A stretch of DNA of 64,000 bases from Candidatus Levyibacteriota bacterium (GTDB taxonomy: Bacteria; Patescibacteriota; Microgenomatia; Levybacterales; UBA12049): contig JACQHJ010000003.1 in the NCBI GenBank assembly GCA_016199085.1, positions 38,676 through 102,675 of the forward strand. Direction: 5' to 3'. The notes below the pieces were generated by a model, which searched no databases, was not told the DNA's origin, and was given only the letters and a program-made list of their open reading frames with translations. Position numbers and translations under genes: made by a program. Shown here in pieces: positions 1 through 39,846 of the stretch (its first letter is position 1; the number at the start of each line of letters is the position of its first letter).

Positions 1-689
1 AAGGATATATTCTAACCCTTATGGCTCTTATCGGAACGACAATTACGCCCTGGGGACAGTTTTTTATTCAAGGCTACGTTGTGGATAAAAAGCTTACCAA
101 AGACGATTTAAAGATTGAAAGAGGAGACGTATTTTTTGGCAGCTTTATAACTAACCTGGTAGCTTTCTTTATCATTATAACTACAGCCGGTGCCTTATTT
201 GCCCATGGCATACAAATTTCTGATGCAAAAGACGCTGCCCTTGCCTTAAGACCATTCTTTGGAGAGTTTGCCACCATTCTTTTTGGCTTTGGGCTTTTAA
301 ATGCATCGCTTTTTGGAGCGGCAATTGTTCCTATCAGCACGTCTTATGTTATAACAGAAGCTTTCGGTATGGAATCAGGACTAAACTACAGCTTTAAACA
401 AGCTCCTGAGTTTTACGGACTTTTTGCAATATCCTTGGTTTTAGGCGGACTTTTTGTAATCTTGCCATTCTTCCCGCTTCTGACAATCTTGGTTGTCTCC
501 CAAGCTATTAATGCGGTTTTACTTATTCCTATTTTTATATTCCTCTATTTGCTTTCAAATGACAAAAAAATCTTGGGTGAATACGCAAGCAATAAGGTTA
601 TGAATATAATAGTACTTCTAGCCTTAATGGCTATTTCCGCAACCGCTCTTATCTTTGTTGCAACAACTATTTTTCCAAACATCTTCTAG
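1..689 (+). CDS. Nramp-family divalent metal transporter (MntH-like), 5'-truncated by the window edge; C-terminal TM6-TM11 portion
   Basis: The reading frame is open from the window start. The segment ALIGTTITPWGQFFIQ aligns to the Nramp TM6 signature region (xIGATVMPHNLYLHS), and the remainder is polytopic and hydrophobic. Confidence 0.55.
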   Translation, partial: GYILTLMALIGTTITPWGQFFIQGYVVDKKLTKDDLKIERGDVFFGSFITNLVAFFIIITTAGALFAHGIQISDAKDAALALRPFFGEFATILFGFGLLNASLFGAAIVPISTSYVITEAFGMESGLNYSFKQAPEFYGLFAISLVLGGLFVILPFFPLLTILVVSQAINAVLLIPIFIFLYLLSNDKKILGEYASNKVMNIIVLLALMAISATALIFVATTIFPNIF

Positions 690-2995
690 AGGAGAAACAT
701 TCGAAGGGTATTTAGCCTAATCTTAAAAGGCACACCGGAAGCAAAAAGTTCTGCAATATACTGTCTTTTTCTAATAACTCTTAAGCTGCTGTATGCAGCA
801 ATTACTGCAACTAAAAGCAGAAATAACATTTGTTCTCTGGTTTGTCCTGCAGTAACTTTATCAAAGTTTTTAGAACCTAAAACCTCCGGTGGGTTTTGAG
901 TATTTGTAGAAAGAGTTGCCAGAGTAGTTTTACCAAAGATCTTAAAATTACTTTGAGCTTGTCCTGAAACCATGTGACCATCTGGGCCAACGTTTCCCTC
1001 TGCGAGTGCTACTGCAAAATATTCGCCCGGGAGCGCATTCTTGGAAAGCACTAAGCCTGTTGAAAGCTTTACAGATCTTCCGCCTGGTATGTCACCAATT
1101 TCAAACAAACCTCCTCCCATATTGACTCCGTCTTTAACTAAGAATAGCTTTAGTTTTGTTCCATAAACCTTTCCAGTTCCAAAGTTTTTTATTTTTACAA
1201 AAAATGTTACAGTATCTCCCGGATACACATATTCTCCTACGTTATTTGCTTGCTCAACGGAAAGTAATCCTCCCTCTTCCTGCTTTTGATCACCTTCGTT
1301 ATTTTCACCATCATTTTTACTTGTTAATTGCTCAGTTGTTTGTTCTTCTTCACTCTCTTTATTCAAGGCATCAAACTCTGCTTTTCCCCCAATATCTCCG
1401 GTCCAATCACCAAAAATATTTAAAAAACCAAAAAAACCTACCGAGTTTATAAAATTGGCATTTACAAAATTAATAAGTGAAACAGCGCTGAATGCATTCC
1501 CTGTATTTATATTTCCGTTTCCATTAATAGTGTTTGACCCACTGTTTGCAAGAGAGGTAACGTTATTTTCAACATAGGCACTGTTATAGATGCTTAAATC
1601 TCCGACACACGTTGAGCACCCACCAGATCCAGCAGGTAGAAAACCTCCTAAGGAGAAGAACATTAGACTTGAACCTCCAAGCTGGGCTGCTAGTCCGTTC
1701 CAGCCTATAAAGTTTCCAATCCAATTTCCCAAAAGATTGATAAACAATCCATATATACTTGTGTTGACAAAATTGGCATTAATTAAATTGAGGTTATTGA
1801 CAATAGAAGCAGCATCTCCGCTAACAATACTTCCATTACCATTAATTGTGTTTTCCCCGCTGTTTGCAGCTGAGTCAACGTTATTTACAACAGTGGCGCT
1901 ATTTGTTGCAACCAAAGACATCCCGCAATCACTGCAAGAAGCAGGTGTAAAATCAGGCAAGATTATGTTGCCGTTAAGCTTTCCGAAAACATTTATGGAA
2001 ACAATATGGATTACAGAATTTACAACCGTAAAGTTAACTTTGTTTAAAAGAGAAACTATGGAATATGCATCACCGCTGTTAATGATTGCCTCAACGCCTG
2101 ATACTCCACCGTTTATCGTGTTTCCTCCTGTATTTGCATAGGAAACTACATTGTTGGAAACAAAAGCATAGTTTTGTAGATTTGTAAAAGAAACGTTTAT
2201 TATTTCATCATCAGGGTGTTGTTGAATCATTTGCGATGCAACTTGAAACGGATCAGAAAGGTTTAAGTTTCCGCTTTCATCCACAAAAATATTTATTGTT
2301 TGATAGACAACTTGGGAATTAACAGAGTTTGTGTTAACAGAATTGTCTACTACTGTTTCAGAAAGTGCATCCCCGCTGTCAATTTCTCCACCACCTGCAT
2401 TTTCTACAGGACAAGAGTTATTGTTGTCATCAACTAGAGGCGTTGCCGAAGGGGTTGCAATCTTATTCTCTCCAGTATTACTGTCTGAATTAATATCGTT
2501 TTCTACATCTCCTTCATTGGCAAGACTTATGGAGTTAGAATTTGAATTATCATTGTTATTACTATTCGAGTTTTCTGTTTGATTATCTGTACTTTCCAGT
2601 TCTGCAGACTCCGTAGCTTGTTCCTCTTGGGGTGTGGGATCAGGAGTTGGGGAAACTTCCTCAGTTGTTGACTGCTCGGTTGGTGATTGTTCATCTGTTG
2701 CATCTTGCGTAGAATCATCTGTTGAATCTGTATTTTCCTCTGGAACAGGAGTTGGATTAATAGTATTATCCCCTGTATCAGATGTTGTTTGTACATCATT
2801 TTCAACTGTACCATCGTTAGTTTCTGTTGTTGCAGAAGTTTCAGAAGTTGGTGTTTCTTCTGTTACAGTTGGCTGTGGGTCCGGTGGTGTTTCATCTGCA
2901 AATACGACAGCAGGTATAACGCTTTGATATAGCATCAAAAATACTATTAAAAGTATTGCCAAACATTTTTTAAATTTTTCTATTTTCCCTGTCAT
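686..2995 (-). CDS. Large secreted repeat-containing surface protein (769 aa). It has an N-terminal signal peptide, a T/S/E/D-rich low-complexity region, three or more N/S/G-rich repeats (consensus V.NNV.S.ANSG.NTINGNG...SG.A.S.V.L...VN.NF), a CSTCVG motif, a DUF11/CARDB-like beta domain and a C-terminal hydrophobic anchor followed by basic residues
   Basis: The translation shows a signal-peptide-like N-terminus, internal repeats visible by eye, and a C-terminal LFLLLVAVIAAY TM segment followed by RKRQ. A sortase gene lies nearby. Confidence 0.6.
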   Translation of the reverse strand: MTGKIEKFKKCLAILLIVFLMLYQSVIPAVVFADETPPDPQPTVTEETPTSETSATTETNDGTVENDVQTTSDTGDNTINPTPVPEENTDSTDDSTQDATDEQSPTEQSTTEEVSPTPDPTPQEEQATESAELESTDNQTENSNSNNNDNSNSNSISLANEGDVENDINSDSNTGENKIATPSATPLVDDNNNSCPVENAGGGEIDSGDALSETVVDNSVNTNSVNSQVVYQTINIFVDESGNLNLSDPFQVASQMIQQHPDDEIINVSFTNLQNYAFVSNNVVSYANTGGNTINGGVSGVEAIINSGDAYSIVSLLNKVNFTVVNSVIHIVSINVFGKLNGNIILPDFTPASCSDCGMSLVATNSATVVNNVDSAANSGENTINGNGSIVSGDAASIVNNLNLINANFVNTSIYGLFINLLGNWIGNFIGWNGLAAQLGGSSLMFFSLGGFLPAGSGGCSTCVGDLSIYNSAYVENNVTSLANSGSNTINGNGNINTGNAFSAVSLINFVNANFINSVGFFGFLNIFGDWTGDIGGKAEFDALNKESEEEQTTEQLTSKNDGENNEGDQKQEEGGLLSVEQANNVGEYVYPGDTVTFFVKIKNFGTGKVYGTKLKLFLVKDGVNMGGGLFEIGDIPGGRSVKLSTGLVLSKNALPGEYFAVALAEGNVGPDGHMVSGQAQSNFKIFGKTTLATLSTNTQNPPEVLGSKNFDKVTAGQTREQMLFLLLVAVIAAYSSLRVIRKRQYIAELFASGVPFKIRLNTLRMFLL

Positions 2996-3096
2996 ATTTT
3001 TTACCTTTCATTTTTCCTTTATTTTTATTTCCTTTCCTCTGTCCAGGGGGAGAGCCCTAAAGTTTGTTGCCCTCCCCAAGGACAAAAAGAAATACT

Positions 3097-3588
3097 TTAG
3101 TTGGGACCAACCTGGTTGTAGTTGACTATACTGTCAACGACTGACACAGAGCTTGCTACTCCAGTTTTTGTACCCTGAAGTAGAACTAAACCTCCAGCGT
3201 TAAGGTTCCCACCTGTGTTTGCATTGGTGTGAACATGGTTGTAAACAAATCCGACATTTCTCTGTTCAATGTCCCCATTTGAAACTCCCAAGTTTACGGC
3301 ACTACCCGCACATCCACAAGTTACTAAATTTGTATTTAGTTGTGTTGAAACTAGTGATGCAGATGATGCGCTTCCGCTATTGATTCCTTGAACACCCGCT
3401 GCGAGAGCGAAGTTAGCGTTTCTTCCGCTGTTTGCACTGGTGTGAACACTGTTTACCACACCTCCAAAGTTGGATTGTTCAATGTCTCCATTTCCAACTC
3501 CAACATTGACTGTTAAAGCTAAGGCAGGAACTGCAGATCCAAATAGTAAAGCTGCTGTTGCTCCTGCTACTGCTAATCTTTTAAACAT
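3097..3588 (-). CDS. Small secreted protein with two copies of the same ANSG-type repeat seen in the 769-aa protein
   Basis: Signal peptide MFKRLAVAGATAALLFGSAVPALA. The repeats VVNSVHTSANSGRN... and VYNHVHTNANTGGN... resemble those in ORF 686..2995. Confidence 0.55.
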   Translation of the reverse strand: MFKRLAVAGATAALLFGSAVPALALTVNVGVGNGDIEQSNFGGVVNSVHTSANSGRNANFALAAGVQGINSGSASSASLVSTQLNTNLVTCGCAGSAVNLGVSNGDIEQRNVGFVYNHVHTNANTGGNLNAGGLVLLQGTKTGVASSVSVVDSIVNYNQVGPN

Positions 3589-3895
3589 TTATATTCACCT
3601 CCTTTCATTTGGGATTATCAATCATTAAATTTAGAGATTGATTGCAACCTGAGGAAAAATTTGAAGAAAATAATTTATCCATAACCTGCCTACGCATCCT
3701 ATAACTTTTTTGAACATTATATGTTACAAAGATTTTTAAACCTTTTTTTATTGATAAGCTAAGGTTTTTAATCATTAATACAAACAAAAAAGGCACCTTT
3801 AATTAATCTTTATTAATTAAGGCGCCTCCGTTTACGGTCAGCGAATATCTATTTTTATAATAATTTCACAAAATTTGTCAAGATATCAATTTAAT

Positions 3896-4063
3896 TTACT
3901 TGGCATTATTAGGCTTCTTTATGTTTTTTTCTGTAATTTGGGTTACTTTAAAATCCTGAATAAAAATTTCTACGCTTCCCCAACCCTTAACGCTTTGGAT
4001 AGAAGATAAAACCTCTTGTTTTAGTTTATCCGATAAGTTCTTTGTGGAATATTGATTAGCCAT
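3896..4063 (-). CDS. Small DUF2292/YezD-like protein (55 aa); not present in the supplied ORF track because it is under 60 aa
   Basis: Manual translation gives MANQYSTKNLSDKLKQEVLSSIQSVKGWGSVEIFIQDFKVTQITEKNIKKPNNAK. The G.GSVEI.IQD.KV.QI segment is the core of the YezD family. Confidence 0.35.
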   Translation of the reverse strand: MANQYSTKNLSDKLKQEVLSSIQSVKGWGSVEIFIQDFKVTQITEKNIKKPNNAK

Positions 4064-4251
4064 AAAAAAAATCCGCTTAGGGCAGATTCGATTGAAATAT
4101 AAACCTTTTCGATAGGTTTGTCAAGGATAACAATGCTGTAAAATAAAACCAACTCTCTTGAATTCTAATTGAGAGTTGGTTTTAAGAATTGCAATTACAG
4201 GATATTTCCTGAATCTTACGGTAAGACATCTATTTGATTTAGCCCTATATT

Positions 4252-4755
4252 TTAATGAGAAAAATATGCACCATACCCATTAGGTGTCGCATTGGCAAAC
4301 CAGAAATGTCCAGGACCCAAGCTTGGATCCATACCTTGATCCATTAATACTGCAAATTGTCCCCAAATGCAGTACCCACCATTTGGTAATGGTGTGTAAT
4401 CTGCTCCGCAAGAACCAACCCAAACAATTTTATAGTGCCAGATGGAACCAGATCCACCCTTTTTACCATTCCACTCATTGTCAGTCCAAGCGTTATAAGG
4501 TGGATTGCTCCAGTTTTCATCATTTCCCCTATCCCATTCGGCGTTCCATTTCATTACAAGTTTATCAGGGGAATAGATTCCCACGCAATTTGCTGCTTGA
4601 CCACCTGCTAGACACCAGCTTGAACCTGTTCCGTTAAAAATTCTGGCTGTATCATTATAACCATATTGGTCAAAACCACCTGCTGCAAAAGCGGACGAAG
4701 CAAAAAGTAAAATTGCAATAGACAAGATTCCAAATAGAGAAAGTTTCTTAAACAT
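4252..4755 (-). CDS. Secreted Trp-rich hypothetical protein with signal peptide
   Basis: N-terminal MFKKLSLFGILSIAILLFASSAFA. The protein is W/G/N-rich, and I recognised no family. Confidence 0.45.
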   Translation of the reverse strand: MFKKLSLFGILSIAILLFASSAFAAGGFDQYGYNDTARIFNGTGSSWCLAGGQAANCVGIYSPDKLVMKWNAEWDRGNDENWSNPPYNAWTDNEWNGKKGGSGSIWHYKIVWVGSCGADYTPLPNGGYCIWGQFAVLMDQGMDPSLGPGHFWFANATPNGYGAYFSH

Positions 4756-4774
4756 TTATTTCACCTCCTTCCAT

Positions 4775-5182
4775 TTATAAATTATTAAATATTCTTTTTA
4801 TAAGATTACTTAAAGTTTCAATAAAACTTTGAATAAAAGATTTCTTGGATAAATTTTCTTTTTGATCATCAACATCAGGCGTAGGAGTTGCTGAATGTGT
4901 AGCAGATTTTGTTGGAGTTGGCTTAACATTAGAAGAATTATCGGAATTAGACTCAACTTTTAATTCGTAAGTTCCGGGACTATCTGCATCCAAGACTTTC
5001 TTCTCCCCATTTGCCTCCACTTCTATATGAGTTTGTACGCTTCCATTTCCCTGAATATTTGTTTCAACTTTAGAATATGAAGAAGCATCACCAGTTTGGA
5101 TATACTGAGAAAAAACCCCAGGTGTAACTAAGAGAAAGAGTAATGAAAAGAAAAGTGTGGTTATTAACGCCCGCCTTTTCAT
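4775..5182 (-). CDS. Secreted hypothetical protein with signal peptide
   Basis: Signal-peptide-like N-terminus. It sits inside the sortase locus. Confidence 0.4.
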   Translation of the reverse strand: MKRRALITTLFFSLLFLLVTPGVFSQYIQTGDASSYSKVETNIQGNGSVQTHIEVEANGEKKVLDADSPGTYELKVESNSDNSSNVKPTPTKSATHSATPTPDVDDQKENLSKKSFIQSFIETLSNLIKRIFNNL

Positions 5183-5221
5183 ATGTTACTTTTTACTCCA
5201 ATATCAAATTTTTGTCAAATT

Positions 5222-5824
5222 TTAGCCTGAAGGGACTGCTGTTACAATTAATCTTTTTTCATCATAAAAACCACTACAGGTATATAGAGTCAGGGTCTCA
5301 TCTTTGGTAGGCTTAATAACTTCAATATTATTTGGATAAACTGCTGTTATTTTATTTACTTTATACCTAAACCATTTATCTTTTGTAAACACATAGATTG
5401 TGTCTCCGAGTTTTACATCTTTTAAGTTTAAAAATAAACCTTCCCTTGCATGCGCAAAAATAACGGTGTTTGACTTATTCCTTGGATTTCCGCTTCCTAA
5501 TCCATAAGAGGCTGTAGTTTCAGAAAGTTCCCAATATCCCTTAACTACTTTTGAGGGAGTTACTTTTAAGTCAATATCTGCCTTTGGGATAAGAATTCTC
5601 ACGGGAATATTTTTGGTTTCTTTTGATTCTAAAAGCTTTTCATTTATAACAATTGGGCTTTTTTCTAAGTTTTTTGAAATTGGAAGTTTATAAGTTAAAA
5701 CAATAAGTGAGGAAAGGATCAGTAAAAGACCCACTAGTTTATATAACAATGGGTGTGAAAAAATATTTTTCTTTGCCTTTTGAAGTTTTTTCAAAAAGGA
5801 GAATCTTTTCTTTGCCTTAGGCAT
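5222..5824 (-). CDS. Sortase family transpeptidase
   Basis: An N-terminal membrane anchor is followed by the catalytic His context IFAHA, the TLxTC motif (TLTLYTCSG) and a downstream conserved Arg (KRLIVTA). Confidence 0.85.
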   Translation of the reverse strand: MPKAKKRFSFLKKLQKAKKNIFSHPLLYKLVGLLLILSSLIVLTYKLPISKNLEKSPIVINEKLLESKETKNIPVRILIPKADIDLKVTPSKVVKGYWELSETTASYGLGSGNPRNKSNTVIFAHAREGLFLNLKDVKLGDTIYVFTKDKWFRYKVNKITAVYPNNIEVIKPTKDETLTLYTCSGFYDEKRLIVTAVPSG

Positions 5825-6284
5825 GTTTTTTGAAAAGTTTAAGACCTAAAATGCTTAAGGAAAGTGCTGCCAGAAGTTGTCCAAATTCAATAAGCATATT
5901 ATTACCGGATCCTGCTGCTGAAAGCCCAAGTACCGCTTGCGTAGGTCCTGATGGAGCACTTGCTCCTCCGTCTGATCTTCCATCGCCTGGTCCTCCACCA
6001 TTTCCACCTCCACCTGGAGTTGTAGTGGGAGTAGGGGTTGGTGCTCCTGTTGTTGGAGTTGGTGTAGGAGTTTCTTGTCCCGGAGTAGGAGTGACTGACG
6101 GCTGTGGTGTGGGAGTACAATCGCAATCTTTTATATTTGTATTTAGCTGGGTCTCTACAACCGTTGTGCTTGTCGCATCTCCTGTAGTTGTTTGCTGATT
6201 CCCTTGGGCAAAAACATCATGGGAAATAAAGGTGAATAAGGAAAGAGCAAAAACTAATATAAATATTTGTGATAAATTCTTCAT
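5817..6284 (-). CDS. Putative sortase substrate: a secreted Pro/Thr-rich protein with a C-terminal hydrophobic segment and a basic tail (…LSAAGSGNNMLIEFGQLLAALSLSILGLKLFKKHA)
   Basis: The likely true start is MKNLSQIFILVFALSLFTFISHDVFA (ATG at 6284). A PT-rich linker is followed by a C-terminal TM and KKHA. The gene overlaps the sortase gene by 8 nt. No canonical LPXTG is present. Confidence 0.55.
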   Translation of the reverse strand: MKNLSQIFILVFALSLFTFISHDVFAQGNQQTTTGDATSTTVVETQLNTNIKDCDCTPTPQPSVTPTPGQETPTPTPTTGAPTPTPTTTPGGGGNGGGPGDGRSDGGASAPSGPTQAVLGLSAAGSGNNMLIEFGQLLAALSLSILGLKLFKKHA

Positions 6285-6330
6285 TTTTAGATTGAGGCAG
6301 TTGAGGCAGTAAGTTTGGCAATTATATGAC

Positions 6331-7479
6331 TTATAAACTAGCTTTGTCAACTGCTAATTTATTAACGTTTATTCCAACGGCTTGTTTCACATTTTTATAC
6401 CCATCTTTTTTTAACAAACCTATCAGTTCCGAGTTAATAAGTGCCGCAGCAGCCGGTCCTTCAAAAATTAATCCTGTAATAAATTGCACAAGAGATGCTC
6501 CCAGTTTTATTTTGTGATATGCGTCTTGCCCGTTAAATACTCCACCGCAGCCAATGATAATTAATTTATCTTTGTAGTTTTTATATGCAAGTTCAATAAG
6601 ACGATTTGAGTCTTCCCAGGTCGGCTTTCCACTGAAATTTCCCACAGGATATTTCGCAGTTTCATTTTTGTCCAAAGTTTTATTATTTCTGTTTTTCTGA
6701 AGGTTTCCAAAAATTACACCATCCATTTTGTTTTTGGAAATAACGTCAAGCAAAGACAGCGCTTCTTTGTCGTTTTTATCAATCGGCATTTTGACAAAAA
6801 TTGGTTTTTTAATATTTAAAGCTTTAATCTTTGTTAAAAGCTCGTCAAGTTTATCAGGATCATAAAAAGTAACCTTTGTATTTAGGTTTGGGCAACTGAT
6901 ATTTAATTCGTAATATTTTGTTTTTAAATCGAATTCTTCGGCTTTTTTAAATGCCGTAACAATATCTTCTACCGCGCTTTCCTGAGTAAACTTTCCCGTA
7001 TTTGTTTGCCCAATGCTAATACCGATTGGAATTTGGAAGTTATAATTTTTAAGCTTATTGCCTACTGCATCAATTCCGTTATTTTTAAATCCTTTGTTAA
7101 CCATTAAGGATTTTGATTTCAAAAGCCTCGCAAGCCTTGGTTTTGGGTTTCCTTCAAAGGCATGGTTTGTAATAGTTCCAACTGTTCCAAAACCAAAACC
7201 TATTGATGGAAGAATCTGCGTAAGAGAGGCGGTATAATCAAATCCTGCAGCAAGACCTATTGGATTTTCAAAAGTTATTCCTTTTATGTTTTGCGAAAGA
7301 ATCGGAGATTTAATATTAAAAATAAAAAAAGCTAGCTTTCTGGTAAGCAGGGTTTTCCCTAAAATCTCTCCATATCTTACTAAAAGATTATGGATTAATT
7401 CGCTGTTAAATAGAAAAATTACCTTAGTTAAAAGATGTTTATAAATATAGTTATAAAACCTAAGCCAGTATTTTTTCAT
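6331..7479 (-). CDS. pyrD: Dihydroorotate dehydrogenase, membrane-anchored quinone-dependent type (class 2)
   Basis: NPIGLAAGFD, FGFGTVGTIT...GNPKPRLARL and ELNISCPN motifs, plus an N-terminal hydrophobic anchor. Confidence 0.8.
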   Translation of the reverse strand: MKKYWLRFYNYIYKHLLTKVIFLFNSELIHNLLVRYGEILGKTLLTRKLAFFIFNIKSPILSQNIKGITFENPIGLAAGFDYTASLTQILPSIGFGFGTVGTITNHAFEGNPKPRLARLLKSKSLMVNKGFKNNGIDAVGNKLKNYNFQIPIGISIGQTNTGKFTQESAVEDIVTAFKKAEEFDLKTKYYELNISCPNLNTKVTFYDPDKLDELLTKIKALNIKKPIFVKMPIDKNDKEALSLLDVISKNKMDGVIFGNLQKNRNNKTLDKNETAKYPVGNFSGKPTWEDSNRLIELAYKNYKDKLIIIGCGGVFNGQDAYHKIKLGASLVQFITGLIFEGPAAAALINSELIGLLKKDGYKNVKQAVGINVNKLAVDKASL

Positions 7480-10368: not shown

Positions 10369-11679
10369 TTAATTACAGGCACTTGAGGGATAATAATTGT
10401 CTGCTTTTGACCCAAACTTTTCTCCTGATCCGTTTTTGCTCATATTATTTCCACAAATCTTTCCCTGAGGCTCTGTTTCTATCTTTAATCCACCCTCTTG
10501 GTTTTGTCTGAAAGTATTGCCGTAGACGTCGTTTCCTATTCCGTAAACTACACTGTCAATCATGTGCCCCCCCAAACGTATGCCAGCGCCCCTGTTTCCA
10601 AAAGTATCGTTATATCTGAATATATTCCTGTCTCCCCTTGCGTCAAGTCCGCCCGAATCTGAATCCATCTGACCGGTGCATGAGTTATATTCGATAATAT
10701 TTTCACTTGAACCTTCTTTTATATCAACACATTCGTTGCCCTGGGTATTGATTGTATTGTGGTGAATAAAGTTTTTTGAAGATTTATCGGCATCTTTGGT
10801 TGGATTTTTTCCATCTCCCCATTGATCAGAAGAAGTACCCAGATATATTCCTTCCCCGTTTTTATTATTGCTTTCAAATTTAAAATCAAATGCACCGCAA
10901 GGACCTACTGCGTTATATGATATCTCGCTTGCCATCACATAGTATCTAAGCCTTATGCACTCTCCTCCGGCGTTTTGAATGACCATTCTTGTTATCTTAA
11001 GACCAGTAAGCGGTGTATATGCTTTTTTACCTAAGACATAAATTAATTTATCTCTGTAGTTTTTTTTATCATTTGGATCCCCTACTAAACCGTCAATCGT
11101 AAACCCCTCCAGGTAAATATTATTGTGATTTATCTCAATAACCCTGGGACCCCCAGATCCTTTTACAATTGCACCCTTTTCGCCCTTTATCGTAATTGGA
11201 GCATCTCCATTGCCATCCCTGACTGTTATAACATTTTGCATATATATCCCATTTGCAAGATTTATTACATCTGAGGGACTTGCAACCGATAGAGCCTTTT
11301 GAATTGTTTTAAAAGAAGAGTTTTTAGATGTTCCAATATTTGAGTCATTACCCGTATTTGGATCGACAAAATAACTTGTACCGACCTTTATTGTATTTGT
11401 GGGAGAATTTGTACCCGATGGATTATTTGTTGGTGTAGAAGTAGCATCTGGGCCCGTCTGAATGTCCTGGGGAATATTTTTACTTGGTTTATTATTTATC
11501 ACCGAAACTACGATTGAAATACCTAAAACAATGATAATTAAAAGTGCTAAAACTTTTATCATATTATTTGGGAATAGTTTGGATTTAACGGTAAGTTTTT
11601 TCTTACGTTTTTTAGATAACTTCTGACGGGACTTTCTTCTTGCCATATTTATTATGTAGAGTATAAACTGGGATTGCAA
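10369..11679 (-). CDS. Membrane-anchored or secreted right-handed beta-helix (pectin-lyase-fold) protein with a Pro/Thr-rich linker
   Basis: A basic N-terminus and TM are followed by a PT-rich region and repeats of the type NGIYMQNVITVRDG / ITIKGEKGAIVKG. Confidence 0.5.
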   Translation of the reverse strand: MQSQFILYIINMARRKSRQKLSKKRKKKLTVKSKLFPNNMIKVLALLIIIVLGISIVVSVINNKPSKNIPQDIQTGPDATSTPTNNPSGTNSPTNTIKVGTSYFVDPNTGNDSNIGTSKNSSFKTIQKALSVASPSDVINLANGIYMQNVITVRDGNGDAPITIKGEKGAIVKGSGGPRVIEINHNNIYLEGFTIDGLVGDPNDKKNYRDKLIYVLGKKAYTPLTGLKITRMVIQNAGGECIRLRYYVMASEISYNAVGPCGAFDFKFESNNKNGEGIYLGTSSDQWGDGKNPTKDADKSSKNFIHHNTINTQGNECVDIKEGSSENIIEYNSCTGQMDSDSGGLDARGDRNIFRYNDTFGNRGAGIRLGGHMIDSVVYGIGNDVYGNTFRQNQEGGLKIETEPQGKICGNNMSKNGSGEKFGSKADNYYPSSACN

Positions 11680-11708: not shown

Positions 11709-12620
11709 TTATAAAATATTCTTTTGCTCAAAGGCAAATTCGTGAAGACCAAGTGCGGTAACAAATTTATTGTTTACGTCAATTACCATCTTTAAAAGTG
11801 ATGCATCAAATCCGTGGGTCGTTGCCCAATAGTAAAAAGCCTGGGTATCTTTTGGCAAGCAACTTCCTTGGAACGGTCCCATATTTCTGATCCCATATTT
11901 TGGATTCCACATTCCCTCACAACTAATTGCAGTGTATTTAAAAATCTTATCTGCATCGACATCAATCTTTGCCGCAATTTCTCGCATCTCATTGTAGAAG
12001 CTTATCTTTGCCGCGTTAAATAGGTTATGGACATATTTTTGCATTTCCGCCTCCATTAATTTACATCTATGCTGTGGGCATGTAAATTTATTCTTATAGA
12101 CGGACTCTAATAGATCTCCTGATTTTTGATCATATTCCCCTATTAAAATTATCCAAGGATTTAGTGTATCATCGTATGCGGTTTCTTCCCGAAGATATTC
12201 CGGATTCATGCAGGCGCCGAAATCTTTACCTGCCTTTTTACCTGAATATTTTTCAATTAATGGAATAACCAGGTTTTGTGTTGTTCCCGGAGGCACTGTG
12301 CTTTTTACAACGACCAGATGATATTTCTTTGTGTTTTTGAGTCTTTTTCCAAGATCCGTTGCTGCTGATTCCAAAGCCTGTAGATTTATTTTTCCTTCTT
12401 TGGTTGGGGTTGGAACGGTAAGCATGGAAATATCGAAATTGTATCCTGAGTCCATAAGTTCATGTCTTTCATAAGCTTTATATCCTTCCCCTCTTAATTT
12501 TTTTACCTTTTCAATATTTCCACCCAAAAATGCAACCTCATAGCCTTTGGCTGCAAAGACTTTTCCCGTTGCCTGTCCTACAATTCCCGGACCAATAATA
12601 CAAATCGTTGGTTTATTCAT
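11709..12620 (-). CDS. UDP-glucose/GDP-mannose dehydrogenase family protein, C-terminally truncated (lacks the UDP-sugar-binding domain)
   Basis: N-terminal Rossmann motif IGPGIVGQA and central catalytic QGSCLPKD motif. The ORF stops at about 303 aa, where homologs run to about 430. Confidence 0.7.
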   Translation of the reverse strand: MNKPTICIIGPGIVGQATGKVFAAKGYEVAFLGGNIEKVKKLRGEGYKAYERHELMDSGYNFDISMLTVPTPTKEGKINLQALESAATDLGKRLKNTKKYHLVVVKSTVPPGTTQNLVIPLIEKYSGKKAGKDFGACMNPEYLREETAYDDTLNPWIILIGEYDQKSGDLLESVYKNKFTCPQHRCKLMEAEMQKYVHNLFNAAKISFYNEMREIAAKIDVDADKIFKYTAISCEGMWNPKYGIRNMGPFQGSCLPKDTQAFYYWATTHGFDASLLKMVIDVNNKFVTALGLHEFAFEQKNIL

Positions 12621-12728: not shown

Positions 12729-14999
12729 TTAGTTTGCTAAATCTACCATTCCCATCACGTCTTTTCTATTCTTATATAACTGGTTAATACCCAAAATGTT
12801 ACTGACATCTGTTTTTACTTTTGTGTAGATTGCATAAACCCTGCTTTCTCTAATCTGGTTTTGGGCAAGTTTATTGCCAAGAGCGCTGTCTTGGAAATAT
12901 ATTCCGATTCCGTTATTGGTTAACAGATTTTTACTTATTTCATTCAAATCTGATTTTACATATACTCCTACTTTATTTCTGTCAAAAGTATTATTTGTTA
13001 TTAAATTATTATTTGCTTTATCATAAAAATATATTCCGTATAAAACGCTTCCTGAAATGTTATTTTCCACTACTGTGTTTTTATTTGAGGAAACATTTGC
13101 CCTAACACCGTGTCTATTGTTCTTAACGGTATTTCCTAGGACAATGTTATTACTAGATCTCCATAGGGCAATTCCACTGGTATTTCCGGAAACAGTATTA
13201 TTTTCAATAATGTTAAAGTCAGATTTTTCATGAAGCATTATTCCGTGGGATTTATTGTCATAGGAAATATTATCTCTAATTGTGTTATACATGCAGCGTT
13301 TTGAAAAGATTATCCCGTGGGTTCCGTTATTGTGGGCAATATTTTTTTCAACCAAGAACCCGTTTGAATCATCGTGGGGATCCAAACCGTATCTTATATT
13401 GTCATAGAATTCATTACCACGCCAGGTCATTCCCGTTGCGCCGTATGTGTATGCACCGAAATAGTTGTGATGGAATTTACTGTTAATAACTTCACCCGTT
13501 AATAAAACTTTTTTTAATTTCAAACTGGACAATTTCCACGAAATTCCGTATGGAGAAACTGAAATATCTGATTTGGTTGGATATCCAAGATATGAGATGT
13601 CAGAATCGTAAACATCAAGTCTTGAATTGTCTTTTACCATAATGAAGCTTCTTCCGTCAGCCAGTTCAAAATCATAATTTGACTTACTACTATCCCATGA
13701 AGTAACCTTGACTCCATTTATGATGATATCTCCGTTTCGAGATCTTAGCATTGCAAATCCCTTACTGTTACTTTCAAGTTTTAGCCAGGTAACTTCATTT
13801 TTATCAAGTTTTAAAGTTGCACCATCTGCCAGAAAGATTGTCGCCTTGGAAATCCAGACTTTTGGAGACTGCTCTAAGAGATAATTTGCACCGCCTCTTT
13901 GGGCAATATCTGAAAGAGTAAATACTCTTCCTCTTCCGCTTACCAAAAGAGTATTGGTAGATTTATCATAAGTAACACTGGCTGCAGGGACTTCAACCTC
14001 TCTTACAAGACCAAACTCAGGAACCAGTGCAATATCTTTGCCCGGAATCGATATTATCTGCCCGTTAGAAATTGTCCTGTTTGGCGCCTTTGCCATATTG
14101 GCAAAATATAGCTGATCACTGCTTATGCCGTATTCCTGTGCAATAGCTGAAAGAGTTTTATTATCCTTTACTTCTACGCGTTTAGTTAATAAATCCTTAT
14201 TAACGGTTTGCGTTCCCAAAACAGCTGCGCTTGCAATAGTATTTGAATTTGTAATCAATGCCTGTGCCAATATCTGATCTTTCTGTGTATGCGGCATTAA
14301 ATATGTATATTGTTTATAAAGATAAACACCATAGGCTAAAAACAAAACTACCGCCGCTGTGGCAACATATGCAGGAAGAGAGTTAATAAACTTAATATGA
14401 GGAAGCCTTGATTTATCCCATCTTGTTATCCAACCCTGAGTGTTTAACGTAAAGAAAGCATAGATTTTAATAAGTCCAGTAAGAAAAGAGTAGATAACGT
14501 ATCCTGGAAGTATATAAATGTTTTTGGGATCTTTTGATAAATAAGGATGAATTTTAATGGCTCTGCTTGTAAACCACCAGACAAAAATAACTGCGGCTGC
14601 TATCCAAATCCCAAGATACAAAGATACAAAAAAATAAATTGGACTTAGTATTACTACAAATGACTGGAGGAATTTATCTATTTGGAAAAATAAAAGTGCG
14701 GGATGTTTCAGTGGCCACCCATTAAAAATTGCTCCAAGATCCGCTCTCAAACCGTTTCTTGTCCATCTTAGTCTTTGTTTAAGATAAGCTCTTAAACTTT
14801 CCATCCCCGGCGTATAGACGTGTGAATTACTTTGATATGCAACCTTAAAACCTGCTTGTAAAACTAAATAGGTAAGTCTTTTATCATCGCCTGATATAAC
14901 AGGTCTTCCCAAAAACTTCTCATTAACTAATTTTTCAAGCATTGGGGTAATAATTTCTCTTATAAAAAGCTGTTCTTCCTGAAAGACAGACAAGTGCAT
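12729..14999 (-). CDS. C-terminal portion of a processive family-2 glycosyltransferase (chitin/cellulose/hyaluronan-synthase-like). It carries the SGDDKRLT and QRLRW motifs and TM helices, and is fused to a LysM domain and a C-terminal parallel beta-helix repeat domain
   Basis: GDDKRLT and QRLRWTRN (the QxxRW motif), a LysM segment (LSAIAQEYGISSDQLYFAN...ISNGQIISIPGKD), and NosD-like beta-helix repeats. It is contiguous with ORF 14935..15627 through a +1 frameshift. Confidence 0.75.
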   Translation of the reverse strand: MHLSVFQEEQLFIREIITPMLEKLVNEKFLGRPVISGDDKRLTYLVLQAGFKVAYQSNSHVYTPGMESLRAYLKQRLRWTRNGLRADLGAIFNGWPLKHPALLFFQIDKFLQSFVVILSPIYFFVSLYLGIWIAAAVIFVWWFTSRAIKIHPYLSKDPKNIYILPGYVIYSFLTGLIKIYAFFTLNTQGWITRWDKSRLPHIKFINSLPAYVATAAVVLFLAYGVYLYKQYTYLMPHTQKDQILAQALITNSNTIASAAVLGTQTVNKDLLTKRVEVKDNKTLSAIAQEYGISSDQLYFANMAKAPNRTISNGQIISIPGKDIALVPEFGLVREVEVPAASVTYDKSTNTLLVSGRGRVFTLSDIAQRGGANYLLEQSPKVWISKATIFLADGATLKLDKNEVTWLKLESNSKGFAMLRSRNGDIIINGVKVTSWDSSKSNYDFELADGRSFIMVKDNSRLDVYDSDISYLGYPTKSDISVSPYGISWKLSSLKLKKVLLTGEVINSKFHHNYFGAYTYGATGMTWRGNEFYDNIRYGLDPHDDSNGFLVEKNIAHNNGTHGIIFSKRCMYNTIRDNISYDNKSHGIMLHEKSDFNIIENNTVSGNTSGIALWRSSNNIVLGNTVKNNRHGVRANVSSNKNTVVENNISGSVLYGIYFYDKANNNLITNNTFDRNKVGVYVKSDLNEISKNLLTNNGIGIYFQDSALGNKLAQNQIRESRVYAIYTKVKTDVSNILGINQLYKNRKDVMGMVDLAN

Positions 15000-15627
15000 C
15001 TCCGCAAGCAGCTAGAAACGGGTATTCATGTTTATATCGAAGATCGAGTTGGACATCAAAGATCTTTTGAGCAAAGGTCTTGGGATTTAAAACGCTTTGA
15101 TAAGTTGCGACTCCGGCCATCCTTCTGTCATTAAACGGAGGAAGTCCGTTTTGAAGCGTATCGGGTGACCAGATCGTGTCACTATCAACGAGCGCAACGA
15201 TTTCTGATTTTGCCCTTGCTATTCCATCAGCCAAGGCTTGTCTTTTGCCAGGAACTTTTGTAACAATCAAAACTCCCCTTTTAAAGGATTTCTTAAACTT
15301 TTCAAAAATTTGGATACAGGTTTTATCTGTATAATCAATTACCGCAATTATCTCCGAAGGCTTATTATTCCTCCAGGACTCTAAAGCTTTTGTAAATACT
15401 TTTGGATCTTCATTGTAGACCGGAGTCACTATTGAGACTTCTGCCTCATATGGCTTTGTTCTAGGTTTATAATGAAGACCTATTATTTCTTTCATCATCC
15501 AGACAGACCATCTCCAAATCCCTATTACCCCTAAAGGAACAAGAAATGAATATCTGTCCAGATACTGCTCTGACCAAAAGGCAATGTCTGATAAGAATAA
15601 TTGAAAATTAATAATAAGTGCTTCCAT
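14935..15627 (-). CDS. N-terminal portion of the same GT2 glycosyltransferase (DxD motif VDSDT), separated from the downstream part by a frameshift in an A5/T5 homopolymer at about 14965-14969
   Basis: TPVYNED...VDSDT...ACGDALVCLSGRTAFY is a typical GT2 A-domain. The two ORFs overlap by 65 nt in different frames. Confidence 0.75.
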   Translation of the reverse strand: MEALIINFQLFLSDIAFWSEQYLDRYSFLVPLGVIGIWRWSVWMMKEIIGLHYKPRTKPYEAEVSIVTPVYNEDPKVFTKALESWRNNKPSEIIAVIDYTDKTCIQIFEKFKKSFKRGVLIVTKVPGKRQALADGIARAKSEIVALVDSDTIWSPDTLQNGLPPFNDRRMAGVATYQSVLNPKTFAQKIFDVQLDLRYKHEYPFLAACGDALVCLSGRTAFYKRNYYPNA

Positions 15628-16529
15628 TATTTCTTTCTCTTTCTTTTTGTAACTTTATTATTTGTTTTAGTTTTATAAGTAAACGTACTTTGGGCAAATT
15701 TAAAATTAACATTGATATATCTATTTTTATATAAAATAATAAATGCCATAAACACGATAATGCTTAACTGGATAAAATACTTACACCAGAAACTGTCATT
15801 TGGACAAAAACCATTAAGCTTATAAAAAGCTAGGTAGACTAAAAGAGGAATCAGAACTGAATAAATTTGCTTTAGCCTAAGATTTCTTTTGGAGAGATAG
15901 AAAAAGGCCAGTAAAAGCATCATCTCTATCCCAAGAAGCTGGAGTCCCACACAGGTTGAACAATTTAAAGATTGACCCGCTGCGGCAACTAATGGAGCCG
16001 GCGGTGGAGCTTTCTCGTCATCAAATTCTTCTGTTGGGGTAGCCGATGCGCTTGCAACAGCTACTGTTTTATAGATCGATAAGTTTGGCTGTTTAGGACC
16101 AGTAGAGGTAACGCTTTTTCTGTTTGGAAATCCGGGTATTGCTGAAAGTTTGTTGGAAAATTTTCCCGGCTTGCATCCATTTTCTCCCCTAACTTTAAAG
16201 TAATATTTTACTCCGTTTTCAAGTTCCGTAACCGAATAGGTTGTGGTTTTGCCGACATTGGGATTTCCATATTCAAGATTTATTTCATCTCTTGCATAGG
16301 CTACGAGGTAATGAGTAATGGGTTCAGGCGCCGGCTGCCATGTTAAAACAACACTTCTGTCTTTTGCTTCCGCCGATATTAAAACAGGAGGGATTTCAGG
16401 CCTTTGATTTTTGCAACTTAATGCATCAGCCTTTTGTATAAAAATTGGTGCCAATAAAACCGAAAAAAGTAGTATTAATACTACCAATAACTTTTTCCCC
16501 ATAGTATAAAATTGTGACAATTGTAACAT
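15627..16529 (-). CDS. Membrane protein with a signal peptide, a fibronectin type III domain and C-terminal TM helices; shares an NCSTCVG motif with the 769-aa surface protein
   Basis: The FN3-like segment is VVLTWQPAPEPITHYLVAYAR...YYFKVRGENG. The region LVAAAGQSLNCSTCVG precedes the TM helices. Confidence 0.5.
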   Translation of the reverse strand: MLQLSQFYTMGKKLLVVLILLFSVLLAPIFIQKADALSCKNQRPEIPPVLISAEAKDRSVVLTWQPAPEPITHYLVAYARDEINLEYGNPNVGKTTTYSVTELENGVKYYFKVRGENGCKPGKFSNKLSAIPGFPNRKSVTSTGPKQPNLSIYKTVAVASASATPTEEFDDEKAPPPAPLVAAAGQSLNCSTCVGLQLLGIEMMLLLAFFYLSKRNLRLKQIYSVLIPLLVYLAFYKLNGFCPNDSFWCKYFIQLSIIVFMAFIILYKNRYINVNFKFAQSTFTYKTKTNNKVTKRKRKK

Positions 16530-28846: not shown

Positions 28847-30004
28847 ATGTCGAGAGAAATTAAAGAACTATCGGGTGTGAATAATAGGCCTGATATTTTG
28901 TTTGCACATAGAGATCTTGCCACAATTGATAGGGGCGGTATTTGTGTTCTTTTTAAATCATTATCTGCAGGCTTAGCGTCAAAAGGTTATAAAGTTCATT
29001 TACTAAGTACAAGAGATATATCTTTGGAGGGAGTATCAGTTCATAGGTTACCTGACATCGAAGATCCAAGAAAATATTCCCAGGTTGTCACTGAAGCAGT
29101 TGAAGATATTGATCCTTTAATAGCTGAGTGTTCAACTTGGAGGTATGAATTACTAGACTATTCAAACAGGCATGGTAGAAGATCTAGGTTAGTAGTAAGA
29201 GCTGACCCAAGTGCAGAGACATTATTTCAAAATGCTGAACATCATTCAGAAGGTGAAAGAGTTCTTTGTGCAAATGCGGATCTTATTTTAGCAGTAAGTG
29301 ATTTTGCTAAACGCGACATACAAACAAGATATGGTGTAAGTGACGACAAGATTCATGTGGTTTATAACGGAATTCCAGTAGTGGAAACTCCTACTCAAAA
29401 TTCAACTATAACATCAGGAGAAATTTTACATCCTGAATTAAATGATGCACAAAGAATACAAAGCTTAAGACTCCAAGATGTTTTAAAACCACAAAGGATT
29501 AATATTATTTGGATAGGAAAGCCAACAAGCATGAAGGGTTTCGATTTTTTAGAAGCTTTGGTTGCAAACGCTACGGATGAATTTAATTTTGTTGTTAACT
29601 TAGGTTATTCTCCCAACGAGATTATGTGGAAAGATGAAAATTATAGAAAATGTACATTTATTAGAGGTTTGAGCAAAAGCGACCAAGCAAAATTGATTAG
29701 TGGATCCGATGTGCTTTTGTCAACTTCTCGATTTGAAGGATTTGGTATTGTGGTTGCAGAAGCACTCCAGTTTGGAGTTCCTGCAGTGATAAACCTAGGG
29801 TGTGAAGTATTTAATGAATTTAAAGATATAAATGGAGTAAGTTTAGTAGATGTACTTAATCTGGAAAAAGTATACTCGACGCTAAGAGCAAGTAAACTTT
29901 TAAAAACTAGGTCATCCCTGCTTCCAGATTTTTTCACTCAAAATCAAATGGTTAATAAAAGCCTGGAATATTATCAAGAACTCTTAGGGTCTAACAAATC
30001 ATAA
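28847..30004 (+). CDS. Glycosyltransferase family 1/4 (GT-B)
   Basis: C-terminal SRFEGFGIVVAEALQFGVPAV (the EX7E motif). Confidence 0.8.
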   Translation: MSREIKELSGVNNRPDILFAHRDLATIDRGGICVLFKSLSAGLASKGYKVHLLSTRDISLEGVSVHRLPDIEDPRKYSQVVTEAVEDIDPLIAECSTWRYELLDYSNRHGRRSRLVVRADPSAETLFQNAEHHSEGERVLCANADLILAVSDFAKRDIQTRYGVSDDKIHVVYNGIPVVETPTQNSTITSGEILHPELNDAQRIQSLRLQDVLKPQRINIIWIGKPTSMKGFDFLEALVANATDEFNFVVNLGYSPNEIMWKDENYRKCTFIRGLSKSDQAKLISGSDVLLSTSRFEGFGIVVAEALQFGVPAVINLGCEVFNEFKDINGVSLVDVLNLEKVYSTLRASKLLKTRSSLLPDFFTQNQMVNKSLEYYQELLGSNKS

Positions 30005-38321: not shown

Positions 38322-38333
38322 ATACTATTCAAT

Positions 38334-38422
38334 CTTGCTGGCTACTTACGAAAAATGTCGAACTTCGTTTCTTAAATAGTCGCTTCGCTCCTACTATTTT
38401 AGAGCTCGGCCTCGCCTCGCTC
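38334..38422. repeat. Inverted repeat X (89 bp), a perfect reverse complement of 43622..43710; begins with the 7-bp core CTTGCTG
   Basis: Direct base-by-base comparison of the two segments. Confidence 0.9.
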
Positions 38423-38439
38423 TTTTGTATTTTTTGCCA

Positions 38440-38900
38440 GAACGAACAAACCTTTTCGCGCGATTTTTATTATACCAAATAACCCGCCCGCCCGACGGAA
38501 AGGAGCGGCGACCCCGCCTTTATGCGAGAGGACTTCCTAGGGGAAGTCTCGCCAGTATCTTTACTTTTTTAAAACTCTTTACAGTCTCTTACTCGCCCCG
38601 CTTCGGCGGGGCTAAATTTCTTCTAACTTAAAACCGCCTGCAGTCAGCGGGGTACTTCCGCTTTTCGCCCCCGCCGATGTTATTCTACCCCCTATTTAGT
38701 TTACGATCTTTGGGATAAACCATATTGGCTCGCCCCGCAAGGTTTCAAGTAAAAGAAGTTTCCGCGGGGCTCGCTTTGGTCGGACTGCCTATACCAAGTC
38801 GGTGGTAAATAAAGTTTTCCTAACGGCAGTTCTCCTTTTAAGGGCGTAATCCTCACGGTGCGGGGGCGGCGGACGCTGCCAATCATTTTTGTCTGAAAAA
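38440..38900 (+). ncRNA. Candidate structured non-coding RNA of unknown class. It is a GC-rich island of about 460 nt in AT-rich DNA with multiple perfect hairpins, including a UUCG tetraloop (GCCCCGC-UUCG-GCGGGGC)
   Basis: There is no plausible ORF; the six-frame ORFs are R-rich artefacts. Hairpins include gacttcc-tagg-ggaagtc, gccccgc-ttcg-gcggggc, and gccccgc...gcggggc. Confidence 0.3.
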
Positions 38901-38988
38901 TTTGACGATAACAGACATTAATAGCTTACAAACTTACGTGAGATAACAGCCTCAAATATACTACATTCAGCCTATTTAATAGTATATC

Positions 38989-39017
38989 TTGACAATAATA
39001 GTAAGATATGTTATAAT
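38989..39017 (+). promoter_or_regulatory. Perfect sigma70-type promoter TTGACA-17 bp-TATAAT, 7 nt upstream of the ATG of the first operon gene (a near-leaderless transcript)
   Basis: TTGACA at 38989-38994, a 17-nt spacer, TATAAT at 39012-39017, and an ATG at 39025. Confidence 0.6.
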
Positions 39018-39024
39018 ACAAGCC

Positions 39025-39243
39025 ATGAAAGAAGATAGAGCACAAAGATTTAAGAGAATCGCCACATATAGAACAAACGAGGTCTTGGATAAGCTCAGGC
39101 TCTTAGGGAATCTCTCCAACAAAGCTAATTATGAATATACAGAGGACGAGGTAAACAAAATATTTTCAGCTATAGAGATTCAGTTAAGAATTGCTAAGGC
39201 TAAATTTTCTTCTTCAAAGAAAAAGAAAGAGTTTTCGCTATGA
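39025..39243 (+). CDS. Small hypothetical protein (72 aa), first gene of the four-gene operon
   Basis: The ORF from the ATG at 39025 overlaps the next gene by 4 nt (ATGA). Confidence 0.45.
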   Translation: MKEDRAQRFKRIATYRTNEVLDKLRLLGNLSNKANYEYTEDEVNKIFSAIEIQLRIAKAKFSSSKKKKEFSL

Positions 39244-39845
39244 GTAATGAAGAATTAACAAATGTTGATATCGTCTTGTACTCGCTTTATTTGCTTGGTG
39301 GTAGTAGAAGAAAGATTTTTACCGAAGATATCGCCAAAAAGTGTTTTGAATTAGCACAAGATCGTTTTTCTTGGAGAAGATATCCAGAATACCCAGATAT
39401 TGAGCCTGCAAGAAAATCTTTAATGGAAGCAAGAAACCAGAAAGACTTAATAAGCGGCAGGGCAGGAGAAGTTAAGGGTACAAAACCATCTGATGGATGG
39501 ATTTTCTCTCCTGAAGGTGTGTTCTGGATAGAAAAAAATAAATCACGTATTGAAAAAGCGCTAGGCAAAAAACAAAAACCTATCAAGAGAACAGAACTTT
39601 CCAAAAAAATTGCCGAGCTTGAATCTTCAAGCGCATTCTTAGAATTTTTGAAAGAAAAGACGTGCAACAATATCAAAGCTTATGAATTCACTGATTTTCT
39701 AAACGTTAGCCTTGATACCCCATCATCAGTAATCAAGAGTAGAATTCAAACTGTTAAGGCTCTTGCAGCATCAGAAAAAAGAGAAAAACTTCTTACATTT
39801 ATTGCGCTTTGCGAAAAAAATTTTTCCAAATTAATTAATAATTAA
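39240..39845 (+). CDS. Hypothetical protein (201 aa), second gene of the operon
   Basis: Translationally coupled to both flanking genes. Confidence 0.5.
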   Translation: MSNEELTNVDIVLYSLYLLGGSRRKIFTEDIAKKCFELAQDRFSWRRYPEYPDIEPARKSLMEARNQKDLISGRAGEVKGTKPSDGWIFSPEGVFWIEKNKSRIEKALGKKQKPIKRTELSKKIAELESSSAFLEFLKEKTCNNIKAYEFTDFLNVSLDTPSSVIKSRIQTVKALAASEKREKLLTFIALCEKNFSKLINN

Positions 39846-39846
39846 C

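Follow-up and report, generated by a model that had tools for sequence, protein, structure and literature searches.

The 64,000-nucleotide stretch of contig JACQHJ010000003.1 from a Candidatus Levyibacteriota bacterium that we analysed (hereafter the window) carries on its minus strand, between positions 12729 and 15627, two overlapping open reading frames (ORFs) which, judged by comparison with their relatives, are the halves of one gene for a 966-residue integral-membrane enzyme. A preliminary description of this DNA had already taken the two for a single gene split by a frame break, and this view is borne out: homologues align with the pair end to end, and at 112 of the 150 related loci on which this and the linkage counts below are based the whole protein lies in one frame, so that the fused form is the favoured one in the clade. 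The same holds for the proposed order of domains, a family-2 glycosyltransferase (GT2) A-domain with a bundle of transmembrane (TM) helices followed by a LysM domain and a C-terminal parallel beta-helix, since the Pfam models for GT2, LysM and NosD/Beta_helix all score above their gathering scores; only the length, given as about 985 amino acids (aa), was too high. The features of the gene are as follows.

14935..15627, minus strand: upstream ORF of 230 aa, overlapping the downstream ORF (ORF list)
12729..14999, minus strand: downstream ORF of 756 aa as listed (ORF list; 737 aa as called by NCBI, P0005)
14954..14962, minus strand: site of the frame break, a purine tract TAT AAGAGAAA TT lacking 2 nt that the closest relatives have (TAC AAA AGA GAA ATT)
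14964..14968: A5 run of the plus strand, T5 on the minus strand, within the in-frame codons GCT TTT TAT (Ala-Phe-Tyr) and not the lesion
14730..15438, minus strand: GT-A catalytic domain, aa 64-300, spanning the break (motifs DSD, SGRTAFYKR, GDDKRLT and QRLRW; Glyco_tranf_2_3 E 7e-28)
14259..14729, minus strand: membrane region, aa 301-457, of interface and TM helices (310-339, 342-359, 368-393 and 413-457 in the AlphaFold2 model)
14421-14432, minus strand: WGTR-like gating loop W400-I-T-R403 (W400, T402 and R403 invariant)
14046..14183, minus strand: LysM module, aa 483-528 (Pfam PF01476, 26.3 bits against a cut-off of 20.9)
12750..13982, minus strand: AlgG-like right-handed beta-helix, aa 550-960 (AlgG match in the PDB, Foldseek match to 4nk6, invariant residues)
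13371-13382, minus strand: DPHD site, D750-P-H752-D753 (AlgG alignment)
13296-13301, minus strand: K777-R778 (AlgG alignment)

Residues 1-224 of the upstream ORF form the genuine N-terminus of the synthase, consisting of two N-terminal helices and the first half of the GT-A fold with D148-S-D150, and its last six residues (NYYPNA) are out of frame. The true frame of the downstream ORF runs from 14957 down to the stop codon at 12729-12731 and supplies the second half of the GT-A fold, the TM and interface helices, LysM and the AlgG-like beta-helix. Public protein sets store these fragments as two proteins, P0005 (737 aa) and P0383 (the exact 230-aa product). In tblastn comparisons with intact homologues, a high-scoring segment pair in frame -2 extends from 15627 to 14956, ending in AFYKR and matching residues 1-224 of P0002 and P0004; bases 14956-14957 are common to both frames.

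Alignment at the DNA level with the intact loci L001 (encoding P0001, 82% aa identity) and L002 (encoding P0004) places the difference immediately downstream of the T5 run, where the window lacks 2 nt. Where the closest relatives compared as DNA (L004, L082, L102) read GCT TTT TAC AAA AGA GAA ATT ATT ACC, the window reads GCT TTT TAT AAG AGA A ATT ATT ACC. By this comparison the lesion is a net loss of two nucleotides in a AAAAGAGAAA-type purine tract adjoining the A5 run, most simply explained by deletion of AA in an A4 run or GA in AGAGAA; where exactly within 14954-14962 it lies is ambiguous. With two bases restored the sequence becomes ...SGRTAFYKREIITPML..., which is identical to a real homologue, and the protein reads AFYKREIITPML, the same as P0004 over that stretch, in a product of 966 aa. 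The repaired junction belongs to a segment, SGRTAFY[RK][RKH]x[IV][IVL], that is ungapped in 113 of 113 full-length homologues and has an invariant Tyr. The break lies within the GT-A fold, directly behind the invariant SGRTAFY(K/R)R motif. To judge from its sequence, the gene as assembled cannot give an active synthase.

Several explanations of the break have to be weighed against one another. The preliminary description had placed the lesion in the A5 run itself, at about 14965-14969, as one extra A. The run is there, at exactly 14964-14968 of the plus strand, and removing one of its bases does mechanically open a frame, SGRTAFIREIITPMLEKL, of 965 aa, from which the true protein would read ...SGRTAFIREIIT... 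As a repair, however, this gives the peptide AFIRE where AFYKRE is right, thereby deleting one residue and losing the invariant Tyr. In the intact orthologue L001 an identical GCTTTTTAT is found, with the T5 run unchanged and in frame (GCT TTT TAT); the codons that follow in the window, TAT AAG AGA (Y K R), match columns holding Tyr in 113 of 113 homologues, Arg or Lys in 113 of 113 and Arg, Lys or His in 112 of 113; and the homologue alignments keep the upstream frame to 14956. On the strength of the in-frame T5 run, the Tyr column and the tblastn frame we rejected the one-base repair, which we regard as extremely improbable. Hardly more credible is the idea that the break is tolerated or even used, either by ribosomal recoding (a +1 or -2 shift) or by termination and reinitiation with reassembly of the two polypeptides. 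A conserved ATG, that of ...TPML..., does lie 5 nt upstream of the TGA of the upstream ORF, so that CCA ATG CTT GAA overlaps AAT GCT TGA, and the 737-aa NCBI call begins at that ATG. Against this stand the absence of any frame break at the site in homologues, which leaves nothing conserved for recoding, the lack of a slippery heptamer, of a long homopolymer and of an evident Shine-Dalgarno sequence, and the position of the cut inside the GT-A fold, where the residues EIITP would be lost. Among the 150 loci a frame break elsewhere in the family occurs only in L031 (about 3539-3543) and L128 (about 2038-2048), and since these lie at other positions the site is not recurrently variable and offers no hint of programmed recoding; a programmed frameshift or a phase-variable tract was rejected on this ground and because 113 of 113 homologues are ungapped and in frame.

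The lesion then appears, from the state of the coding sequence, to be either very recent or an artefact. The repaired protein keeps 138 of the 138 columns that are invariant in 82 homologues and 158 of 161 near-invariant ones, where intact homologues keep 155-161 of 161-163; because the conserved columns are kept as in intact homologues, the protein shows no decay. We lean, with some reserve, towards a real recent deletion or strain variant. That the two-nucleotide gap is an assembly or consensus artefact, and that the organism has an intact 966-aa gene, is a serious contender that we do not prefer. It would account for the likeness of the repaired protein to intact homologues at conserved columns, for the position of the lesion within a low-complexity purine tract beside short homopolymers, and for the rarity of frame breaks in other assemblies (two of the 150 loci, each elsewhere). 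Yet a clean 2-nt deletion is atypical of homopolymer error, and no other Pfam-covered gene in the 64 kb has a split domain: about 50 domain-bearing genes in the window have essentially full coverage of their Pfam profiles and a scan of the other ORFs found no second split gene, so the assembly is not riddled with indels. Nor was an independent contig of the same population found for comparison in JGI metagenomes, where a scan for the exact pattern across the junction, allowing 0-3 extra bases, gave no match and a scan guided by the protein reached nothing closer than relatives at 83% identity.

The N-terminal half of the protein is, by sequence and by predicted fold, a processive family-2 synthase of the hyaluronan synthase (HAS)/NodC type on a TM channel. 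The motifs named in the preliminary description are all present, DSD at 15178-15186, GDDKRLT at 14871-14891 and QRLRW at 14763-14777, and residues D148/D150, G247-D249-K250-T253, Q285/R288/W289 and W400/T402/R403 are invariant in 83 sequences. The combination of GDD(K/R)xLT with a WGTR-type gating loop marks the HAS/NodC clade; here the first appears as G247DDKRLT253 and the second as W400-I-T402-R403, in which the Gly of WGTR is replaced by Ile. A NodC model aligns end to end with this half (E 4.5e-27), its best sequence matches are solved hyaluronan synthases (HAS1, E 5e-18), and among plasmid genes the best named matches are HasA of B. anthracis pXO1 (28.6% identity, E 8e-26) and NodC. An AlphaFold2 model built with the 83 sequences has a mean pLDDT of 90.2, and Foldseek ranks BcsA/cellulose and chitin synthases behind the Chlorella-virus and Xenopus enzymes CvHAS and XlHAS1 (TMt 0.56-0.63, E about 1e-17 to 1e-18). 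The likeness to class I hyaluronan synthases and NodC (CvHAS 7sp6, XlHAS1 8smm, B. anthracis HasA) thus covers the GT-A domain with its DxD, GDD(K/R)xLT, QxxRW and WGTR-like motifs and the N-terminal TM pair with the interface and TM helices that form the channel, and, as in hasA-hasB, the synthase gene adjoins that of a nucleotide-sugar 6-dehydrogenase. Identity to these enzymes is only 25-29%, and whereas they have two TM helices after the gating loop, hydropathy shows a single hydrophobic helix here (about aa 413-435), with a K/R-rich loop before it by K/R counts. The positive-inside rule and the analogy with HAS predict that everything after this helix lies outside the membrane, the C-terminus leaving the cell with some 500 extra residues that comprise LysM and the beta-helix.

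In that C-terminal half the LysM module has the expected beta-alpha-alpha-beta pattern in prediction (strand 483-486, helices 493-499 and 504-510, strand 525-528). The beta-helix had been called NosD-like, which is right for the generic repeat (Pfam NosD, E 5e-41) and too generic for the domain, since its closest counterpart is AlgG, the periplasmic poly(beta-D-mannuronate) C5-epimerase of Pseudomonas. With NosD, the nitrous-oxide reductase maturation protein, the domain shares only the parallel beta-helix repeat, and membership of that family was rejected: TIGR04247 reaches 55.3 bits where 300 are required, nos genes are missing from the context, and AlgG is much the better match. In phmmer searches the P. 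syringae AlgG structures 4ozz/4nk6 are found at E 1.8e-32 over aa 570-876 (about 307 residues), the NCBIfam AlgG model scores E 2e-39, and 4nk6 ranks first in Foldseek (TMt 0.70). The segments YG(I/L)DPHD, HGII(I/F)S(R/K) and N-S-x-x-NK are common to both, and counting along the alignment equates Y747 with Tyr314, D750 with Asp317, H752 with His319, D753 with Asp320 and K777 with Arg345; Y747, D750, H752, D753, K777 and R778 are all invariant in the family. In AlgG, abstraction of H-5 is ascribed to the His of DPHD, a water molecule held by Tyr314 is a possible proton donor, and the Arg neutralises the carboxylate (PMC4444821). AlgG also belongs to a polymerisation and export complex (PMC4444821), and the domain described here would likewise act on a chain emerging from a GT2 synthase. 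It differs in being covalently fused to the synthase and LysM in a single-membrane cell, and in its extra C-terminal coils. Going by sequence, then, the domain is a relative of AlgG and not an AlgG orthologue.

The preliminary description had thought a fusion of synthase, peptidoglycan-binding and beta-helix domains unusual; in Patescibacteria the fused form is standard. More than 110 proteins of 946-983 aa came back from a protein search; they share the Pfam content, align end to end at 50-82% identity and score up to 1845 bits, far beyond chance. Levy-, Ames-, Roizman-, Davies- and Chisholmbacteria are among their source names. Among species-representative genomes, 227 stretches encode a relative, in Microgenomates groups, WWE3, Parcubacteria (Moran-, Falkow-, Andersen- and Staskawiczbacteria) and Caldilineaceae, the last with 40-42% identity over nearly the full length. 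Exhaustive searching of 1.84 billion cluster representatives with phmmer yielded 577 clusters at E<=1e-30, of which about 17 hold the fused protein in full length; among the others are stand-alone synthases of 400-520 aa matching aa about 20-440, stand-alone LysM-beta-helix proteins of 430-550 aa matching aa about 483-920, and giant proteins with several AlgG-like modules. The possibility raised earlier that the parts are normally separate genes thus does not apply within the clade and does apply to more distant relatives, where contigs carrying the separate synthase or LysM-beta-helix genes are only 2.9-3.4 kb long. That the two modules are separate in distant relatives and fused here is evidence, of the Rosetta-stone type, that they work together.

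The loci L011, L014 and L035 have two copies of the gene, and in several genomes the copies stand in tandem as synthase-dehydrogenase-synthase; a second copy at a distance also occurs among relatives. TPA_asm records with a gene of the candidate phyla radiation (CPR) type (L003, L004, L010, L012-L014 and others) are often titled 'uncultured Gammaproteobacteria bacterium' or 'Bdellovibrionales', labels that look unreliable. In the literature searched we found no description of the fusion or of any family member, and the one paper that joins Microgenomates with 'hyaluronan synthase' merely lists the annotation in metagenome-assembled genomes of Parcubacteria. The fusion gene family is conserved and abundant in databases, yet undescribed in that literature.

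The synthase gene is part of a co-directional cassette that is kept in relatives. Besides the gene for an NTP_transf_6 protein, its neighbours are the following.

11709..12620, minus strand: short nucleotide-sugar 6-dehydrogenase of 303 aa (PF03721 and PF00984; Cys of GSCLPKD kept)
10369..11679, minus strand: membrane-anchored beta-helix protein resembling PL31 alginate lyase (AlphaFold2, Foldseek and profile evidence; in 40 of 150 loci)
15627..16529, minus strand: protein of 300 aa with fn3 (E 2e-11) and a C-terminal multi-TM region, its stop codon overlapping the synthase start

The dehydrogenase adjoins the synthase on the same strand in 99 of 150 loci and is without the C-terminal nucleotide-sugar-binding domain, TIGR03026 being matched at 2-296 of 413. 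This short form is the rule in the family: the best 120 homologues (248-349 aa, 60-89% identity) have PF03721 and PF00984 only in 120 of 120 cases, and the stop-to-stop ORFs at the loci, whose median length is 314 aa and of which the longest has 376 aa, never include the C-terminal domain. Its best PDB match is AlgD, GDP-mannose 6-dehydrogenase, at 151.6 bits, compared with 127.6 for the best UDP-glucose dehydrogenase (UGDH) and about 84 for typical bacterial ones; the NCBIfam hidden Markov model of archaeal AglM gives a good score as well. Of the beta-helix protein, the NCBI annotation covers just the final 290 aa (P0247, HY344_02230); the ORF and its homologues are about 397-436 aa long and include a TM helix at the N-terminus and a linker rich in Pro, Thr and Ser. 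Its AlphaFold2 model (pLDDT 89.3) has as its top Foldseek match PsAly 6kfn (E 9e-11, TMt 0.76, root-mean-square deviation 3.5 Å), which a profile of the family also finds in the PDB at E 3.4e-8, with GEGIY(I/V)G and DIKEG segments in common. Given its match to the mannuronate-specific PsAly in sequence and predicted fold, this protein is a candidate enzyme for trimming or release. PsAly itself is a PL31 beta-helix alginate lyase, EC 4.2.2.3 (PMC8618178). The fn3 protein, in which a signal/TM segment and a single fn3 domain are joined through a Pro-rich linker to a multi-TM C-terminus containing Cys, lies upstream of the synthase in 60 of 150 loci, in the closer clade, and is a possible co-polymerase-like partner.

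Four functions of the Pseudomonas/Azotobacter alginate system (algD-alg8-alg44-algK-algE-algG-algX-algL-algIJF-algA) have counterparts in this cassette, namely the AlgD-like dehydrogenase, the GT2 synthase, the AlgG-like epimerase and the lyase-like protein. The two systems differ in that the synthase here is HAS/NodC-like, the lyase is PL31-like rather than a PL5 AlgL, and the dehydrogenase is without its C-terminal domain. Alg44 (PilZ), AlgK/AlgE, AlgX/I/J/F and AlgA were not seen next to the gene and, since these canonical components are absent from the neighbourhood, the locus does not belong to the operon family of the Pseudomonas type. According to a published census, in which neither Patescibacteria nor Chloroflexi are mentioned, alginate operons of that type occur mainly in Pseudomonas (PMC7112194).

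Taken as a whole, the locus is probably best explained as one broken synthase-epimerase gene of a CPR polyuronate cassette. The homology and predicted folds of all four proteins, the conservation of catalytic sites, the gene linkage and the fusion speak for it, and the covalent fusion of HAS-like and AlgG-like parts together with the linkage to an AlgD-like dehydrogenase and a lyase-like protein supports a specific functional link. On sequence and model evidence the locus can be read as a compact cassette for the synthesis, epimerisation and trimming of an alginate-like or glycosaminoglycan (GAG)-like polyuronate. In such a scheme the short AlgD/UGDH-like dehydrogenase would supply an activated uronic acid, and the cytosolic GT2 domain would polymerise a uronic-acid-containing glycan from nucleotide sugars and extrude the chain. 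The extra C-terminal TM helix would place LysM and the beta-helix outside, where LysM may fix the protein to peptidoglycan or bind a GlcNAc-containing chain. The AlgG-type beta-helix would then act on the emerging chain, its predicted activity being C5 epimerisation at the polymer level, with His752 abstracting H-5, Tyr747 positioning the proton-donor water and Lys777/Arg778 neutralising the carboxylate; the membrane-anchored PL31-like protein might trim or release the polymer. This evidence agrees with the earlier suggestion of a polysaccharide that is first synthesised and afterwards processed outside the membrane.

A number of observations pull the other way. The carboxylate-neutralising Arg345 of AlgG aligns to Lys777, followed by Arg778, and the NCBIfam AlgG equivalog NF038177 reaches 135.4 bits, far short of its cut-off of 700. 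The fold and the proton-abstraction chemistry are moreover common to epimerases and lyases (PMC4444821), and all three points would suit a beta-helix that is no epimerase at all, being instead an enzyme that cleaves polyuronate, as a lyase or depolymerase, or a module of the generic NosD/CASH kind that guides or binds the chain without catalysis. This we think unlikely: AlgG and no lyase is the best match in both sequence and fold, the water-positioning Tyr of AlgG is invariant as Y747, and the cassette already encodes a separate lyase-like protein. For the polyuronate cassette as such, the pointers to the sugar disagree, since the HAS/NodC-like synthase suggests UDP-sugars and alginate enzymes are the nearest matches of the dehydrogenase, the epimerase and the lyase alike; the choice is between an alginate-type polymer of mannuronic and guluronic acid (ManA/GulA), to which three components point, and a hyaluronan- or chitin-type chain with epimerisation of glucuronic to iduronic acid (GlcA to IdoA), to which the synthase points. 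The dehydrogenase is without the domain that normally binds the nucleotide, which makes its substrate uncertain, and the location of the C-terminal half outside the cell is one that we infer from topology. All functions are predicted from sequences and models.

Some other regions of the window deserve mention. A probable integrated island at about 38900..45417 contains 201-aa and 749-aa proteins of unknown type (39240..42096), a protein with a Shedu SduA_C domain (42139..43425) and, at 43784..45406, a large serine recombinase whose ORF runs at its 3' end into tRNA-Gln(CTG), which lies at 45346..45417 on the opposite strand. Two intergenic stretches, 38322..38988 and 51285..51923, hold ORF-like pieces with a GC content of 0.47-0.52, compared with 0.356 for the window; they gave no Rfam match at gathering scores, and their folding z-scores of just -1.7 and -2.1 are not significant, so that they may be unclassified structured RNAs or nothing. 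At 30028..32817 (plus strand), after a GT4 glycosyltransferase (28847..30004), a 929-aa protein combines an S-adenosylmethionine-dependent methyltransferase, a Pol-beta-type nucleotidyltransferase and a C-terminal GT2. On the minus strand, 686..6350 holds a run of proteins, secreted or of low complexity and matching no Pfam family (769 aa at 686..2995, and others of 163, 167, 135 and 177 aa), around a sortase (5222..5824); they are possible cell-surface sortase substrates.

The frameshift itself is ordinary, and the significance of the locus rests on the family and the cassette. In this genome the copy of the envelope-polymer synthase is probably dead or mis-assembled, and its annotation splits the synthase into two unrelated proteins that annotation and metabolic reconstruction should count as one gene. 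What is new, we infer, is a synthase-dependent polyuronate system in which the epimerase is fused to the synthase, and the fusion is a natural one-protein model for the coupling of polymerisation and modification in such systems. CPR bacteria depend on attachment to their hosts, and their surface polymers are little known experimentally. To our knowledge, polymer-level epimerisation of uronates for alginate has so far been tied to Pseudomonas, Azotobacter and brown algae. We offer it as a speculation, and no stronger, that Patescibacteria and some Caldilineaceae make a C5-epimerised alginate- or GAG-like polyuronate by a minimal cassette, in which a single polypeptide serves as polymerase, wall anchor and epimerase, the dehydrogenase does without its nucleotide-binding domain and a PL31-type lyase replaces AlgL. 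If this were true, the loss of the dehydrogenase domain would imply a new way of recognising or handing over the substrate, and polymer-level epimerisation of uronates would reach the cell envelope of ultra-small episymbiotic bacteria.

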